Position numbers and translations under genes: made by a program
In this document: piece by piece, positions 4,573 to 48,600 of the stretch
How the letters are laid out: the number at the start of each line of letters is the position of its first letter
Numbering within the stretch: position 1 is the first letter of the stretch
DNA from: Escherichia coli
GTDB taxonomy: Bacteria > Pseudomonadota > Gammaproteobacteria > Enterobacterales > Enterobacteriaceae
NCBI RefSeq assembly: GCF_003018235.1
Contig: NZ_CP027437.1
DNA length: 64,000 nucleotides
Strand: one strand, 5' to 3'
Notes under the pieces: generated by a model
What the model was told of the DNA's origin: nothing
The model's input: only the letters and a program-made list of their open reading frames with translations
Databases searched by the model: none

Positions 4573-5310
4573 TTATGTATTGCTGCTGTTTGCAGCGATG
4601 ATTTTCGCTACTTTTTCAGCTTGCGCATTCATCTGCATCTGACGGTATGCATTTTCCATCAGCGGCAGCGCATCACGCGTCGCCTGGGTATCCGGGTAGT
4701 CGCGCAACATGCCTTCTACGCGGTTAACGACGGCAACCCATGCACCACGTTCTGTATAGTACTCGGCAACGGAGTATTCATATTTCGCCAGACGATCTTT
4801 CAGGAATACCAGACGTTTGGTGGCATCGGTGGTGTACTGACTGTTCGGATAGCCGCGCACCAGTTTGGAAAAGTCACTAAACGCAGCTCGTGCATGTTGA
4901 GGATCGCGATCGCTACGGTCAACGCCAAAGAACCCTTGCAGCGCACTGTCATCGAGCGCCATATTGGTCAGGCCACGCATGTACATGACATAATCGATAT
5001 TCGGATGGGTCGGGTTAAGGCGAATAAAACGATCGATGGCAGCCTGTGCTAACGGCAAATCGGCGTTTTTATAGTAGGCGTAGATGAGATCCAGCTGCAC
5101 CTGCTGCGAATATGGACCAAACGGATAGCGATTATCTAACGCTTCCAGTTGCGTTATTGCCTGTCTCCAGTTACCGTCCTGCAGCTTTTGTTGTGCAGTC
5201 GCGTAAATTTCATTTGGCGGATTATCAGGTACTTCTTCCTTTGACCCCGAGCAACCCGCCAAAAACAGGCTTAGTGTGGCGGCTGCCACCAGATATTTCA
5301 TGCGCGTCAT
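4573..5310 (-). CDS. bamD: Outer membrane protein assembly factor BamD (lipoprotein, TPR-like)
   Basis: 245 aa with lipobox LAGC. Confidence 0.95.
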
Positions 5311-6425: not shown

Positions 6426-7153
6426 GTAAGCTGATTGTCCCGCAGTGGCCGCTGCCAAAAGGTGTTGCGGCCTGTAGCTCCACTCGTATCGGCGGCGTGA
6501 GCTTGCCCCCGTATGACTCGCTCAACCTCGGTGCTCATTGTGGCGATAACCCGGATCACGTTGAGGAGAATCGTAAGCGACTTTTTGCTGCGGGCAATTT
6601 GCCTTCAAAACCGGTCTGGCTTGAGCAGGTACACGGCAAAGATGTGCTTAAGCTTACTGGCGAACCTTATGCCTCAAAACGAGCAGATGCCTCTTATAGC
6701 AACACGCCGGGCACGGTTTGCGCAGTGATGACTGCCGACTGCCTCCCCGTGCTGTTTTGCAATCGAGCGGGAACGGAAGTCGCCGCCGCTCATGCTGGCT
6801 GGCGTGGACTGTGCTCAGGCGTGCTGGAAGAGACGGTTTCCTGTTTTGCTGATAATCCGGAAAATATTCTCGCCTGGTTAGGGCCGGCAATTGGTCCACG
6901 CGCGTTTGAAGTGGGGGCGGAGGTTCGCGAGGCGTTTATGGCAGTAGACGCCAAAGCGAGTACAGCTTTCATTCAGCATGGTGATAAGTATCTGGCGGAT
7001 ATTTATCTCCTTGCCCGGCAGCGTCTGGCGAACGTCGGTGTCGAACAAATTTTCGGCGGTGACCGTTGTACATATACGGAAAATGAGACTTTCTTCTCTT
7101 ATCGTCGCGACAAGACCACCGGTCGTATGGCAAGTTTCATTTGGCTGATATAA
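6422..7153 (+). CDS. yfiH: YfiH/PgeF family protein (purine nucleoside phosphorylase-like, peptidoglycan editing factor)
   Basis: 243 aa; ATGA start/stop overlap with rluD. Confidence 0.9.
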   Translation: MSKLIVPQWPLPKGVAACSSTRIGGVSLPPYDSLNLGAHCGDNPDHVEENRKRLFAAGNLPSKPVWLEQVHGKDVLKLTGEPYASKRADASYSNTPGTVCAVMTADCLPVLFCNRAGTEVAAAHAGWRGLCSGVLEETVSCFADNPENILAWLGPAIGPRAFEVGAEVREAFMAVDAKASTAFIQHGDKYLADIYLLARQRLANVGVEQIFGGDRCTYTENETFFSYRRDKTTGRMASFIWLI

Positions 7154-7215
7154 CCTAAAGAATCAAGACGATCCGGTACGCGTGATTTTCTTTTCACATT
7201 AATCTGGTCAATAAC

Positions 7216-7243
7216 CTTGAATAATTGAGGGATGACCTCATTT
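7216..7243 (+). promoter_or_regulatory. Sigma32 heat-shock promoter of clpB (-35 CTTGAA, -10 CCTCATTT)
   Basis: Motif match to the sigma32 consensus, about 40 nt upstream of the clpB start. Confidence 0.6.
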
Positions 7244-7282
7244 AATCTCCAGTAGCAACTTTGATCCGTTATGGGAGGAGTT

Positions 7283-9856
7283 ATGCGTCTGGATCGTCTT
7301 ACTAATAAATTCCAGCTTGCTCTTGCCGATGCCCAATCACTTGCACTCGGGCACGACAACCAATTCATCGAACCACTTCATTTAATGAGCGCCCTGCTGA
7401 ATCAGGAAGGGGGTTCGGTTAGTCCTTTATTAACATCCGCTGGCATAAATGCTGGCCAGTTGCGCACAGATATCAATCAGGCATTAAATCGTTTACCGCA
7501 GGTTGAAGGTACTGGTGGTGATGTCCAGCCATCACAGGATCTGGTGCGCGTTCTTAATCTTTGCGACAAGCTGGCGCAAAAACGTGGTGATAACTTTATC
7601 TCGTCAGAACTGTTCGTTCTGGCGGCACTTGAGTCTCGCGGCACGCTGGCCGACATCCTGAAAGCAGCAGGGGCGACCACCGCCAACATTACTCAAGCGA
7701 TTGAACAAATGCGTGGAGGTGAAAGCGTGAACGATCAAGGTGCTGAAGACCAACGTCAGGCTTTGAAAAAATATACCATCGACCTTACCGAACGAGCCGA
7801 ACAGGGCAAACTCGATCCGGTGATTGGTCGTGATGAAGAAATTCGCCGTACCATTCAGGTGCTGCAACGTCGTACTAAAAATAACCCAGTACTGATTGGT
7901 GAACCCGGCGTCGGTAAAACTGCCATCGTTGAAGGTCTGGCGCAGCGTATTATCAACGGCGAAGTGCCGGAAGGGTTGAAAGGCCGCCGCGTACTGGCGC
8001 TGGATATGGGCGCGCTGGTGGCTGGGGCGAAATATCGCGGTGAGTTTGAAGAACGTTTAAAAGGCGTGCTTAACGATCTTGCCAAACAGGAAGGCAACGT
8101 CATCCTGTTTATCGACGAATTACATACCATGGTCGGCGCGGGTAAAGCCGATGGCGCAATGGACGCCGGAAACATGCTGAAACCGGCGCTGGCGCGTGGT
8201 GAATTGCACTGCGTAGGTGCCACGACGCTTGACGAATATCGCCAGTACATCGAAAAAGATGCTGCGCTGGAACGTCGTTTCCAGAAAGTGTTTGTTGCCG
8301 AGCCTTCTGTTGAAGATACCATTGCGATTCTGCGTGGCCTGAAAGAACGTTACGAATTGCACCACCATGTGCAAATTACTGACCCGGCAATTGTTGCAGC
8401 GGCGACGTTGTCTCATCGCTACATTGCTGACCGTCAGCTGCCGGATAAAGCCATCGACCTGATCGATGAAGCAGCATCCAGCATTCGTATGCAGATCGAC
8501 TCAAAACCAGAAGAACTCGACCGACTCGATCGTCGTATCATCCAGCTTAAACTGGAACAACAGGCGTTAATGAAAGAGTCTGATGAAGCCAGTAAAAAAC
8601 GCCTGGATATGCTCAACGAAGAACTGAGCGACAAAGAACGTCAGTACTCCGAGTTAGAAGAAGAGTGGAAAGCAGAGAAAGCATCGCTTTCTGGTACACA
8701 GACCATTAAAGCGGAACTGGAACAGGCGAAAATCGCTATTGAACAGGCTCGCCGTGTGGGTGACCTGGCGCGGATGTCTGAACTGCAATACGGCAAAATC
8801 CCGGAACTGGAAAAGCAACTGGAAGCCGCAACGCAGCTCGAAGGCAAAACTATGCGTCTGTTGCGTAATAAAGTGACCGATGCCGAAATTGCTGAAGTGC
8901 TGGCGCGTTGGACGGGGATTCCGGTTTCTCGCATGATGGAAAGCGAGCGCGAAAAACTGCTGCGTATGGAGCAAGAGCTGCACCATCGCGTTATTGGTCA
9001 GAACGAAGCGGTTGATGCGGTATCTAACGCTATTCGTCGTAGCCGTGCGGGGCTGGCGGATCCAAATCGCCCGATTGGTTCATTCCTGTTCCTCGGCCCA
9101 ACGGGTGTGGGGAAAACTGAGCTTTGTAAGGCGCTGGCGAACTTTATGTTTGATAGCGACGAGGCGATGGTCCGTATCGATATGTCCGAGTTTATGGAGA
9201 AACACTCGGTGTCTCGTCTGGTTGGTGCGCCTCCGGGATATGTCGGTTATGAAGAAGGTGGCTACCTGACCGAAGCGGTGCGTCGTCGTCCGTATTCCGT
9301 CATCCTGCTGGATGAAGTGGAAAAAGCGCATCCGGATGTCTTCAACATTCTGTTGCAGGTACTGGATGATGGGCGTCTGACTGACGGGCAGGGGAGAACG
9401 GTCGACTTCCGTAATACGGTTGTCATTATGACCTCTAACCTCGGTTCCGATTTGATTCAGGAACGCTTCGGTGAACTGGATTATGCGCACATGAAAGAGC
9501 TGGTGCTCGGTGTGGTAAGCCATAACTTCCGTCCGGAATTCATTAACCGTATCGATGAAGTGGTGGTCTTCCATCCGCTGGGTGAACAGCACATTGCGTC
9601 GATTGCGCAGATTCAGTTGAAACGTCTGTACAAACGTCTGGAAGAACGTGGTTATGAAATCCACATTTCTGACGAGGCGCTGAAACTGCTGAGCGAGAAC
9701 GGTTACGATCCGGTCTATGGTGCACGTCCTCTGAAACGTGCTATCCAGCAGCAGATCGAAAACCCGCTGGCACAGCAAATACTGTCTGGTGAATTGGTTC
9801 CGGGTAAAGTTATTCGCCTGGAAGTTAATGAAGACCGGATTGTCGCCGTCCAGTAA
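7283..9856 (+). CDS. clpB: Disaggregase chaperone ClpB (AAA+); internal GTG at 7727 (codon 149) is the known start of the short ClpB isoform
   Basis: 857 aa from the ATG at 7283 (GGGAGGAG Shine-Dalgarno); the ORF track begins 4 codons earlier at 7271; two Walker A motifs. Confidence 0.95.
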
Positions 9857-9863
9857 TGATAAA

Positions 9864-9888
9864 ACGAGCCCTTCGGGGCTCGTTTTTG
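9864..9888 (+). terminator. Rho-independent terminator after clpB
   Basis: ACGAGCCC-TTCG-GGGCTCGT hairpin followed by TTTTT. Confidence 0.8.
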
Positions 9889-9970
9889 TCTATAAATTAG
9901 ACGGAAAAGACTATGCTTAAGATGTTTTGCCTGAAAAATGAGCGAACGATAAAGTTTTTATATTTTTTGC

Positions 9971-9998
9971 TTGTCAGGCCGGAATAACTCCCTATAAT
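9971..9998 (+). promoter_or_regulatory. rRNA operon promoter P1 (-35 TTGTCA, 16-bp spacer, -10 TATAAT, GC-rich discriminator) with an AT-rich UP element upstream
   Basis: Classic rrn P1 architecture read directly. Confidence 0.75.
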
Positions 9999-10088
9999 GC
10001 GCCACCACTGACACGGAACAACGGCAAACACGCCGCCGGGTCAGCGGGGTTCTCCTGAGAATCTCAACAGAGTCAAGCAAGAAAATGC

Positions 10089-10116
10089 TTGACTCTGTAG
10101 CGGGAAAGCGTATTAT
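10089..10116 (+). promoter_or_regulatory. rRNA operon promoter P2 (-35 TTGACT, 16-bp spacer, -10 TATTAT)
   Basis: Motif reading. Confidence 0.65.
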
Positions 10117-45658: not shown

Positions 45659-48600
45659 ATGATGGAAATTCTGCGTGGTTCGCCTGCATTGTCGGCATTC
45701 CGAATCAACAAACTGCTGGCACGTTTTCAGGCTGCCAGGCTCCCGGTTCACACTATTTACGCCGAGTATGTCCATTTTGCTGACCTCAATGCGCCGTTAA
45801 ACGATGATGAGCACGCACAACTTGAACGCCTGCTGAAATATGGCCCGGCACTCGCCAGCCACGCCCCGCAAGGCAAACTCCTGCTGGTGACCCCGCGTCC
45901 TGGCACCATCTCTCCCTGGTCTTCGAAAGCGACCGATATTGCCCATAACTGCGGGCTGCAACAGGTAAACCGTCTTGAGCGCGGCGTGGCTTACTATATA
46001 GAAGCCGGTACGCTGACCAATGAACAATGGCAGCAGGTTACCGCTGAACTGCACGACCGCATGATGGAAACGGTCTTTTTTGCTTTAGATGATGCAGAGC
46101 AGCTGTTTGCACACCATCAACCGACTCCGGTCACCAGCGTTGATTTGCTGGGGCTGGGCCGTCAGGCGCTAATCGACGCTAACCTGCGTCTTGGCCTGGC
46201 ACTGGCGGAAGATGAAATTGACTATTTGCAGGATGCTTTCACAAAGCTTGGTCGTAACCCGAACGACATCGAACTGTATATGTTTGCCCAGGCGAACTCC
46301 GAGCACTGCCGCCACAAAATTTTTAACGCCGACTGGGTTATCGATGGTGAACAGCAGCCGAAATCGCTGTTTAAGATGATCAAAAACACCTTCGAAACTA
46401 CGCCGGATCACGTTCTCTCTGCTTATAAAGATAACGCCGCCGTCATGGAAGGGTCTGAAGTGGGCCGCTACTTTGCTGACCACGAAACGGGCCGCTACGA
46501 TTTCCATCAGGAACCGGCGCATATTCTGATGAAAGTTGAAACCCACAACCACCCGACGGCGATTTCTCCGTGGCCGGGCGCGGCGACCGGTTCCGGCGGT
46601 GAAATCCGCGATGAAGGTGCCACCGGGCGCGGCGCGAAGCCGAAAGCTGGTTTGGTTGGTTTCTCCGTTTCCAACCTGCGAATTCCTGGCTTCGAACAGC
46701 CGTGGGAAGAAGATTTCGGTAAGCCTGAGCGCATTGTCACCGCGCTGGACATCATGACCGAAGGCCCGCTGGGTGGCGCGGCATTTAACAACGAATTTGG
46801 TCGTCCGGCACTGAACGGCTACTTCCGTACTTATGAAGAAAAAGTGAACAGCCACAATGGCGAAGAGCTGCGCGGTTATCACAAACCGATCATGCTGGCG
46901 GGCGGGATCGGCAACATTCGTGCCGATCACGTACAAAAAGGCGAGATCAACGTTGGTGCGAAGCTGGTCGTTCTCGGCGGCCCGGCAATGAACATCGGTC
47001 TTGGCGGCGGCGCGGCGTCTTCCATGGCGTCTGGTCAGTCTGATGCCGACCTCGACTTCGCTTCCGTACAGCGCGACAACCCGGAGATGGAGCGTCGCTG
47101 CCAGGAAGTGATCGACCGTTGCTGGCAGCTTGGTGATGCCAACCCAATCCTGTTTATCCACGACGTTGGCGCAGGCGGTCTTTCTAACGCCATGCCGGAA
47201 CTGGTGAGCGACGGCGGGCGCGGCGGTAAATTCGAACTGCGCGATATCCTGAGCGACGAACCGGGCATGAGCCCGCTGGAAATCTGGTGTAACGAATCCC
47301 AGGAACGCTACGTGCTGGCGGTTGCTGCCGATCAGTTACCGCTGTTTGACGAACTGTGTAAGCGTGAGCGCGCGCCATACGCGGTGATTGGTGAAGCGAC
47401 CGAAGAACTGCATCTTTCTTTGCACGATCGTCATTTTGATAATCAGCCGATCGATCTGCCGCTGGACGTACTGCTTGGTAAAACGCCGAAGATGACCCGC
47501 GAAGTACAAACGCTGAAAGCGAAGGGTGATGCGCTGGTTCGTGAAGGGATTACCATTGCTGACGCGGTGAAACGCGTGCTGCACCTGCCGACCGTGGCGG
47601 AGAAAACTTTCCTGGTGACCATTGGTGACCGCAGCGTAACCGGCATGGTAGCGCGCGATCAGATGGTGGGTCCGTGGCAGGTGCCGGTCGCTAACTGCGC
47701 GGTCACTACCGCCAGCCTTGACAGCTACTATGGTGAAGCGATGGCGATTGGCGAGCGTGCGCCGGTTGCGCTGCTGGATTTCGCCGCCTCTGCCCGTCTG
47801 GCGGTCGGTGAAGCGTTAACCAATATTGCCGCAACACAGATTGGCGATATCAAACGCATTAAACTTTCCGCCAACTGGATGGCGGCGGCAGGCCACCCTG
47901 GTGAAGATGCGGGCCTGTATGAAGCCGTTAAAGCTGTGGGCGAAGAACTTTGTCCGGTGCTGGGCCTGACGATCCCGGTGGGTAAAGACTCTATGTCGAT
48001 GAAAACCCGCTGGCAGGAAGGTAACGAAGAGCGCGAAATGACGTCGCCGCTGTCGCTGGTGATTTCTGCATTTGCCCGTGTGGAAGATGTGCGTCACACC
48101 ATCACGCCGCAGCTTTCTACCGAAGATAACGCATTACTGCTGATTGATCTGGGCAAAGGCAATAACGCGCTGGGCGCAACGGCGCTGGCGCAGGTTTATC
48201 GTCAGCTTGGCGACAAACCGGCAGATGTACGCGACGTTGCCCAACTGAAAGGCTTCTATGACGCGATTCAGGCGCTGGTTGCACAGCGTAAGCTGCTCGC
48301 GTACCACGACCGCTCGGATGGCGGCCTGCTGGTAACGCTGGCGGAAATGGCCTTTGCTGGTCATTGCGGCATTGACGCGGATATCGCCACTCTGGGTGAC
48401 GATCGCCTGGCGGCGTTGTTTAACGAAGAACTGGGTGCGGTGATTCAGGTTCGTGCCGCTGACCGTGAAGCAGTTGAAGCGGTACTGGCACAGCATGGGC
48501 TTGCGGATTGCGTCCATTATGTAGGGCAGGCGGTTTCCGGTGACCGTTTTGTGATTACCGCCAACGGGCAGACTGTATTCAGCGAAAGCCGCACTACGTT

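Follow-up and report, generated by a model that had tools for sequence, protein, structure and literature searches.

The window (the whole 64-kb stretch of DNA that was analysed) carries Escherichia coli clpB, which encodes a heat-shock disaggregase, in its ordinary form and with canonical signals for control and coding (probability about 0.96), among them a sigma-32 promoter and a second, internal translation start at a GTG codon. Both the dual start and the sigma-32 promoter are already known, and the two products are already annotated in the reference genome; neither is new. The sole reading that would go beyond current knowledge, offered here as a hypothesis, is the arrangement in which the promoter and the initiation region of the full-length protein are embedded in the sequence of the small RNA RyfD. 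The best explanation of the locus is that, on heat shock, sigma-32 RNA polymerase would bind CTTGAA-N14-CCTCATTTA (7216-7244); that transcription would begin near 7251; that ribosomes would initiate at two in-frame sites of the clpB mRNA, each with its own GGAGG Shine-Dalgarno sequence, AUG 7283 yielding the 857-amino-acid ClpB95; and that transcription would end at a hairpin and T-run at 9865-9887. Heat induction of clpB and the synergy of its hetero-oligomers are taken from the literature. The gene and its transcription signals are as follows:

7283..9856, + strand: clpB CDS for full-length ClpB (ClpB95), a RefSeq CDS of 857 amino acids and 95.6 kDa
7216..7221, + strand: sigma-32 promoter -35 element, CTTGAA, matching the consensus at 6 of 6 positions and invariant in the Enterobacterales alignment
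7236..7244, + strand: sigma-32 promoter -10 element, CCTCATTTA, after a 14-nt spacer, with a 7/8 match to CCCCATNT
7251, + strand: predicted sigma-32 transcription start (A), placed by the geometry of dnaK P1
9865..9887, + strand: clpB intrinsic terminator, CGAGCCC-TTCG-GGGCTCG followed by TTTTT, with a 7-bp GC stem; the fold of 9850-9900 has an energy of -20.3 kcal/mol (z -6.3)

Of 5426 complete E. coli genomes, 5425 match the 2.85 kb around clpB. Record NZ_OZ547043.1 does so with 100% identity; its features follow in the order rluD, yfiH, clpB and a 16S-tRNA(Glu)-23S rRNA operon, and its RefSeq clpB CDS maps exactly onto window positions 7283..9856 on the + strand. The encoded protein is 100% identical to ClpB of strain K-12 (0 amino-acid differences). 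At the DNA level the CDS differs from that of K-12 by 24 synonymous substitutions, none of them inside 7161-7303 or 7700-7745, and a 1-nt indel lies just 3' of the stop codon; the sequence is identical to K-12 across 7161-7303 (promoter and RyfD region) and across 7700-7745 (internal initiation region). The gene thus shares with K-12 clpB (b2592; ClpB95/ClpB80) its protein, promoter, RyfD region and both initiation regions, and the differences are without functional effect.

The domain content is that of a class-1 Hsp100 (ClpB/Hsp104) AAA+ disaggregase, namely an N-terminal domain, two AAA+ modules and a D2-small domain: Pfam matches are Clp_N (3.2e-28), AAA (8.2e-27), AAA_lid_9 (7.8e-35), AAA_2 (4.1e-72) and ClpB_D2-small (3.5e-29). 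The translation contains Walker A and B motifs in both modules (GEPGVGKT with FIDELH; GPTGVGKT with LLDEVEKA), and neither an IGF nor an IGL tripeptide of the ClpP-docking IG[FL] loop occurs in it. Residues 1-160 match ClpB chains of the PDB (E 2.6e-97). Antisense open reading frames of 232, 155 and 110 amino acids within clpB were rejected as genes, as they have no Pfam match.

The promoter core at 7216..7243 reads CTTGAA-N14-CCTCATTT, the -10 element occupying 7236-7243, or 7236-7244 if the following A is counted, and it compares with the published sigma-32 consensus CTTGAA-N13-17-CCCCATNT (PMC4263515). A search for this consensus with at most one mismatch returns a single match on both strands of the 64-kb window, at 7216..7243, whereas dinucleotide shuffles give a mean of 0.28 matches per 64-kb window. 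A sigma-32 promoter at 7216..7243 had been proposed in the earlier note, and its 6/6 match at -35, its 7/8 match at -10 and its uniqueness in the window bear the proposal out; the promoter is conserved from E. coli to Providencia. In Salmonella, RpoH binding at clpB (by ChIP) and heat induction have been reported (PMC11548764), and the sigma-32 promoter of E. coli clpB has been employed in constructs (PMC6941012). With the reference sigma-32 promoter, dnaK P1 (PMC10216364), the clpB promoter shares CTTGAA, the 14-nt length of the spacer and a -10 element of the CCCCATTTA type; it differs in that its -10 element, CCTCATTTA, is one mismatch off the consensus and in that it sits inside the RyfD sequence. 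By analogy with dnaK P1 we infer a transcription start at 7251, 7 nt past the last base of the -10 element. A search of the literature for a measured clpB transcription start returned nothing usable, and 7251 stays a prediction. A terminator-like hairpin at 7226-7240, called by the pattern scan within the sigma-32 promoter, was treated as part of the RyfD fold and not as a terminator.

At the other end of the gene, a GC-rich hairpin and T-run directly after the clpB stop identify an intrinsic terminator. The pattern scan for sigma-70 promoters and terminators missed it; additional pairing between the A and T runs on either side is the probable reason. The CDS itself ends with three in-frame stops, TAA TGA TAA (9854-9862). 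On the 3' side of the terminator, the rRNA operon has its two sigma-70 promoters, both close to consensus, at 9971-9998 and 10089-10116.

Initiation of translation involves the following features:

7274..7278, + strand: Shine-Dalgarno sequence GGAGG serving ATG 7283, with the second-strongest pairing energy of the gene (-10.2 kcal/mol)
7271..7273, + strand: upstream in-frame ATG that opens the mechanically called open reading frame, not the start codon; anti-Shine-Dalgarno pairing energy +0.6 kcal/mol
7283..7726, + strand: region coding for the N-terminal domain, residues 1-148 (PDB 1KHY; Clp_N of Pfam), absent from the short isoform
7715..7719, + strand: internal Shine-Dalgarno sequence GGAGG, formed by codons Gly145 (GGA) and Gly146 (GGT), -10.6 kcal/mol, best in the gene
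7727..9856, + strand: CDS of the short isoform from the internal GTG, codon 149 (709 amino acids, 79.9 kDa, MNDQGA...), named 'ClpB80' in K-12

The GTG at 7727-7729 is in frame with the full-length start, (7727-7283)/3 being 148, and is codon 149. Upstream of it, GGAGGTG occupies 7715-7721, and 7 nt separate the GGAGG core from the GTG, so that a start-capable codon is preceded by a Shine-Dalgarno sequence within the range of 5-10 nt expected of an in-frame internal start. For every NTG triplet in the gene, we scored the pairing energy of the region from -20 to -4 with the anti-Shine-Dalgarno sequence of 16S rRNA. The energies are -10.6 kcal/mol for GTG 7727 and -10.2 kcal/mol for ATG 7283, against -6.4 kcal/mol for the next best (52 NTG triplets in frame, 135 in all frames); only these two of the 135 triplets in clpB have a strong Shine-Dalgarno sequence. 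GGAGG occurs once in the 2.6-kb CDS. The N-domain structure (PDB 1KHY) comprises residues 1-148, which places codon 149 exactly at the domain boundary.

These signals agree with what is published on the protein. Two translation starts in E. coli give rise to ClpB95 and ClpB80, whose hetero-oligomers are more active: mixed hexamers disaggregate proteins better than either isoform alone (PMC6941012, PMC11268196). A secondary Shine-Dalgarno sequence of clpB has been described (PMC11268196), and the alternate start is given as GUG at position 149, with the N-domain comprising residues 1-148 (PMC6168691). Ribosome profiling with retapamulin (Ribo-RET) detects a specific peak of initiation at the internal site already known for clpB (10.1101/520783), and in Salmonella the short form disappears when GTG445 is replaced by CTT, while mutation of the Met143 ATG leaves both isoforms (PMC11005335). 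The K-12 record NC_000913.3 carries 'ClpB80' as a separate CDS (YP_010051194.1, 2731600..2733729 complement) that starts at the equivalent of window position 7727. Hence the claims of the earlier note regarding this site are upheld: the in-frame GTG at codon 149 with its own GGAGGTG is there on direct reading and has the best Shine-Dalgarno energy; it corresponds to the known short ClpB that lacks the N-domain; the Ribo-RET peak and the Salmonella mutation, the published isoform data called for as a check, agree with it; and the comparison with reference clpB for an altered GTG or Shine-Dalgarno sequence finds 7700-7745 identical to K-12, with both present. We conclude that use of GTG 7727 as a second start of the clpB mRNA is supported, the signals coming from the sequence and actual use from the literature. 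The internal in-frame starts of infB and mrcB in E. coli, which like that of clpB were recovered by Ribo-RET (10.1101/520783), likewise produce two N-terminal proteoforms from two sites on one mRNA; clpB differs from them in that its short form drops a whole folded domain (residues 1-148) and in that both forms co-assemble in one hexamer.

Conservation of the internal start was examined at three depths. Within the species, 5380 of 5418 E. coli genomes have exactly the same 46 nt around the internal start. For the Enterobacterales, a metagenome scan with a pattern of the clpB promoter yielded 86 distinct clpB 5' regions with 70-100% nucleotide identity to E. coli over codons 1-186; because the sample was conditioned on the promoter and not on the internal site, it provides a fair test of the latter. 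Val149 is encoded by GTG in 85 of these 86 sequences, the lone exception being GTT in Photorhabdus, and the entropy of this codon (0.09) is the lowest among seven conserved valine codons, which range up to 1.85. Gly145, which supplies the Shine-Dalgarno sequence, is the rare GGA in 79 of the 86 and GGG in 5 more. A wider sample, from a genome scan, comprises 79 gammaproteobacterial and betaproteobacterial loci with 66-100% protein identity, across which the motif R-G-G-x-x-V is conserved at the protein level. Here GTG at codon 149 was observed 36 times, against 35.7 expected from the valine codon usage of each gene, which indicates that the internal start is not universal. In the subset with a strong Shine-Dalgarno sequence, GTG is found in 15 of 21 loci against 9.1 expected (simulated P ~0.006, phylogeny ignored), and the strong and weak Shine-Dalgarno groups of the wider sample differ in GTG enrichment (Fisher 0.011, phylogeny again ignored).

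Selection at synonymous sites on the GTG and its Shine-Dalgarno sequence is thus seen in Enterobacterales and not across all Gammaproteobacteria and Betaproteobacteria. In our reading of these alignments, selection appears to maintain the dual start in Enterobacteriaceae and in a scattering of other lineages, and ClpB does not have it universally; GTG at Val149 would by itself be no evidence for an internal start, Val149 being conserved as an amino acid. The ClpB of Anaplasma, which has no secondary Shine-Dalgarno sequence and a single form (PMC11268196), fits this reading. Mycobacterium tuberculosis makes a ClpB-deltaN of approximately 80 kDa, devoid of the N-domain, from an internal GTG at position 149 (PMC6168691), and so resembles E. 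coli in both codon and product despite its distant lineage.

Several other accounts of the two proteins have to be weighed against initiation at ATG 7283 and GTG 7727. According to the mechanically called open reading frame, the long form would initiate at ATG 7271 (MGGV-MRLD...); this ATG is in frame with clpB with no stop between, lies 3' of the predicted transcription start at 7251, and is kept in most Enterobacterales. However, no Shine-Dalgarno sequence precedes it (+0.6 kcal/mol), and the GGAGG at 7274-7278 falls within the additional codons of the longer frame, in a position suited to initiation at 7283; RefSeq, which starts the gene at 7283 in both records, and PDB ClpB chain 1KHY (residues 1-148, equal to query residues 1-148) begin at MRLD; homology begins at Met1 (MRLD) in all 79 proteobacterial loci; and Photorhabdus and Providencia have TTG or GTG in place of the ATG at 7271. 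The ATG pairs inside a conserved leader hairpin, which explains its conservation. The chance that the long form starts at 7271 is therefore negligible, and the preference expressed in the earlier note for ATG 7283 over the longer frame proves correct. A similar question arises for the short isoform, which might start at the ATG of Met143 (7709), in frame and 18 nt upstream of GTG 7727, the codon that an automated caller chose from Ribo-RET data of Salmonella (PMC11005335). The Shine-Dalgarno energy of this ATG is merely -1.4 kcal/mol, the GGAGG being 3' of it, and the Salmonella mutants are discriminating, in that loss of the Met143 ATG leaves both isoforms in place while loss of the GTG removes the short one (PMC11005335); a start at Met143 has as good as no probability.

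The remaining accounts dispense with the internal initiation site or with the shared mRNA. The GGAGG and GTG could be mere by-products of coding for R-G-G-x-x-V, with the short protein arising by proteolysis, and both the retention of this motif as protein in the 79 loci and the codon-usage frequency of GTG149 in the wider sample (36 vs 35.7) speak for such an account. On the other hand, the synonymous choices are fixed in Enterobacterales (GTG in 85/86, GGA in 79/86), GTG is enriched where the Shine-Dalgarno sequence is strong (15/21 vs 9.1, P ~0.006, phylogeny ignored), initiating ribosomes are detected at the internal site (10.1101/520783), and the Salmonella GTG-to-CTT mutant loses the short form (PMC11005335). 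The published mutagenesis refutes proteolysis for E. coli and Salmonella, and we judge this account very improbable. About equally improbable is a separate, shorter mRNA driven by an internal promoter of clpB, an arrangement put forward for Leptospira, in which weak internal transcripts occur upstream of a putative internal start (PMC6941012). Between 7283 and 7727 there is no sigma-70-like site and no sigma-32-like site at two or fewer mismatches, and an internal promoter is rejected because nothing promoter-like was found in that interval; the strong Shine-Dalgarno sequence and the published mutagenesis suffice to account for the short form without one, although a weak internal promoter might escape recognition from sequence. 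Two initiation sites on one clpB mRNA remain the preferred reading.

The earlier note did not mention RyfD, which overlaps both the sigma-32 promoter and the clpB start codon:

7161..7303, + strand: RyfD small RNA, Rfam RF02768 (Ysr155_RyfD), corresponding to K-12 ryfD at 2734153..2734295 (complement)

The match to RF02768 extends over 7164-7302, scores 125.3 bits where the gathering score is 42, and covers model positions 1-140 of 140; with this full-length match and a position between yfiH and clpB as in Yersinia, the segment is a plain member of the RyfD/Ysr155 family. It contains the whole sigma-32 promoter, and its 3' end lies 21 nt into clpB. The segment is at least 99% identical in 5425 of 5426 E. 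coli genomes, and RF02768 also has matches in E. albertii, Citrobacter, Enterobacter and Photorhabdus, with none in Providencia, Pasteurellaceae or Vibrio. In Yersinia, RyfD is constitutive and hfq-independent (PMC3672283); elsewhere it is described as being without ribosome association (10.1101/2022.09.02.506378), and lpp has recently been proposed as its partner (10.1101/2025.09.11.675593).

The RyfD segment folds with an energy of -52 kcal/mol (z -5.6). In the predicted fold, 7165-7188 pairs with 7278-7300, which comprises the 3' half of the Shine-Dalgarno sequence, the AUG and codons 2-6, and CUCC at 7247-7250 pairs with GGGA at 7274-7277. In an alignment of the region from 62 sequences, the fold pairs 90% of cells; slid controls reach 38-48%. 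RNAalifold and pair counting on the same 62 sequences detect 4 double changes and a covariation score equal to that of shuffles; with the 3' arm of RyfD coding and almost invariant, covariation lends the fold little support. Third-codon-position conservation among the 86 Enterobacterales sequences peaks over clpB codons 1-16 (0.92, against a mean of 0.75), which would fit a structural constraint but is also usual at the beginnings of genes. A conserved TGATATAAC motif at 7146-7154, a putative extended -10 element, would put the start of a transcript at 7161; its conservation is confounded, since the motif overlaps the yfiH stop codon.

This arrangement suggests a way in which the choice of promoter might gate the translation of clpB as well as its transcription, with RyfD as a possible stable by-product of the silenced form; we put this forward tentatively and consider it rather doubtful. 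Transcripts derived from upstream, whether by read-through from rluD-yfiH or from the putative extended -10 promoter TGATATAAC of RyfD, would carry the RyfD fold with the Shine-Dalgarno sequence and AUG sequestered, and would be poorly translatable for ClpB; sigma-32 transcripts would begin near 7251, just past the anti-Shine-Dalgarno CUCC, and, having neither of the sequestering arms, would be translatable. Opening 7270-7295 is predicted to take 28.6 kcal/mol in transcripts that start at 7161 or further upstream, compared to 15.5 kcal/mol in transcripts that start at 7251, which makes the initiation region approximately 13 kcal/mol costlier to open in long transcripts. Likewise, averaged over the 62 sequences, the initiation region is unpaired with a probability of 0.17 in long transcripts and of 0.36 in those from 7251, whose first 100 nt show no unusual stability (z 0). 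The prediction nonetheless has the sigma-32 leader partly paired, which makes the contrast with long transcripts quantitative and not all-or-none. As there is no significant covariation, the argument for gating is one from thermodynamics and sequence conservation. A search of the literature found no paper that describes gating of clpB through RyfD.

For annotation, clpB starts at 7283 and not where the longer open reading frame opens, and ClpB80 from 7727 should be annotated as a second product, as in the K-12 reference; most RefSeq records of E. coli, NZ_OZ547043.1 included, annotate the long form only. Conservation of GTG149 across bacteria is mostly conservation of valine, and the discriminating signal is the Shine-Dalgarno sequence derived from the rare GGA codon of Gly145, which can help to predict in what species two ClpB isoforms are made. 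The embedding of promoter and start codon in RyfD may link an orphan small RNA to the control of clpB translation.

The start of clpB, the heat-shock disaggregase gene, lies within the 3' part of an annotated small RNA, RyfD; the overlap takes in the gene's sigma-32 promoter as well as its first 21 nt. Three features describe this region:

7146-7154, + strand: extended -10-like motif TGATATAAC, overlapping the stop codon of the upstream gene yfiH (TAA, 7151-7153)
7161-7303, + strand: RyfD small RNA, annotated (Rfam RF02768, 125 bits)
7226-7240, + strand: small inverted repeat TGAGG-GATGA-CCTCA, across the spacer and -10 element of the sigma-32 promoter

RyfD folds at -52 kcal/mol, in a structure that pairs the Shine-Dalgarno sequence (SD), AUG and codons 2-6 of clpB with the segment immediately 3' of the yfiH stop codon. 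The sole clear compensatory change in this closing helix is found in a metagenome contig (L129, OLIJ01000125.1), in which a synonymous change of clpB codon 4 (GAT to GAC) is accompanied by A to G in the 5' arm, converting an A-U pair to G-C; in another aligned locus (L159), codon 4 is changed in the same way but the helix shows no compensation. Among 86 Enterobacterales clpB sequences, third-position conservation is highest in codons 1-16 (7283-7330, + strand; 0.92 versus a gene-start mean of 0.75), and the Arg2 codon is invariantly CGT. On sequence comparison, this conservation is consistent with a constraint from RNA structure or from initiation.

The TGATATAAC motif would predict a transcription start at 7161, which is the annotated 5' end of RyfD. 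It is kept in nearly all of 96 Enterobacterales sequences, a conservation confounded by the yfiH coding sequence, and no good -35 element accompanies it. The inverted repeat within the sigma-32 promoter, labelled terminator-like by a pattern scan, coincides with a conserved hairpin of the RyfD model, where pairing reaches 99% across 62 sequences. Elsewhere in the window, sigma-32-like matches with two mismatches, one per element, occur at 4935, 9638, 37614 and 53475 (+ strand) and at 47933 (- strand); these are probably chance matches.

Downstream, clpB is followed by an rRNA operon:

9854-9887, + strand: end of clpB, where the in-frame stops TAA, TGA and TAA directly follow one another, then a strong intrinsic terminator
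9971-9998, + strand: near-consensus sigma-70 promoter (11/12 matches)
10089-10116, + strand: near-consensus sigma-70 promoter (10/12 matches)
from about 10299: 16S rRNA of the operon (16S, tRNA-Glu, 23S)

The two sigma-70 promoters are presumably the tandem P1 and P2 of this operon. Relative to K-12, the window has a 1-nt indel directly 3' of the first clpB stop codon. A sub-threshold match to Rfam Ysr197 (9924-10000) was clipped by the edge of the searched segment.

Across the Gamma- and Betaproteobacterial loci retrieved by genome scan (L003-L082), the frequency of GTG at Val149, the codon of the internal start in E. coli clpB, overall equals the codon-usage expectation; GTG is enriched only in loci with a strong SD. 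The protein motif R-G-G-x-x-V (codons 144-149) is almost universal among these loci, and therefore a latent SD (GGN GGN) is already present everywhere, together with a Val codon.
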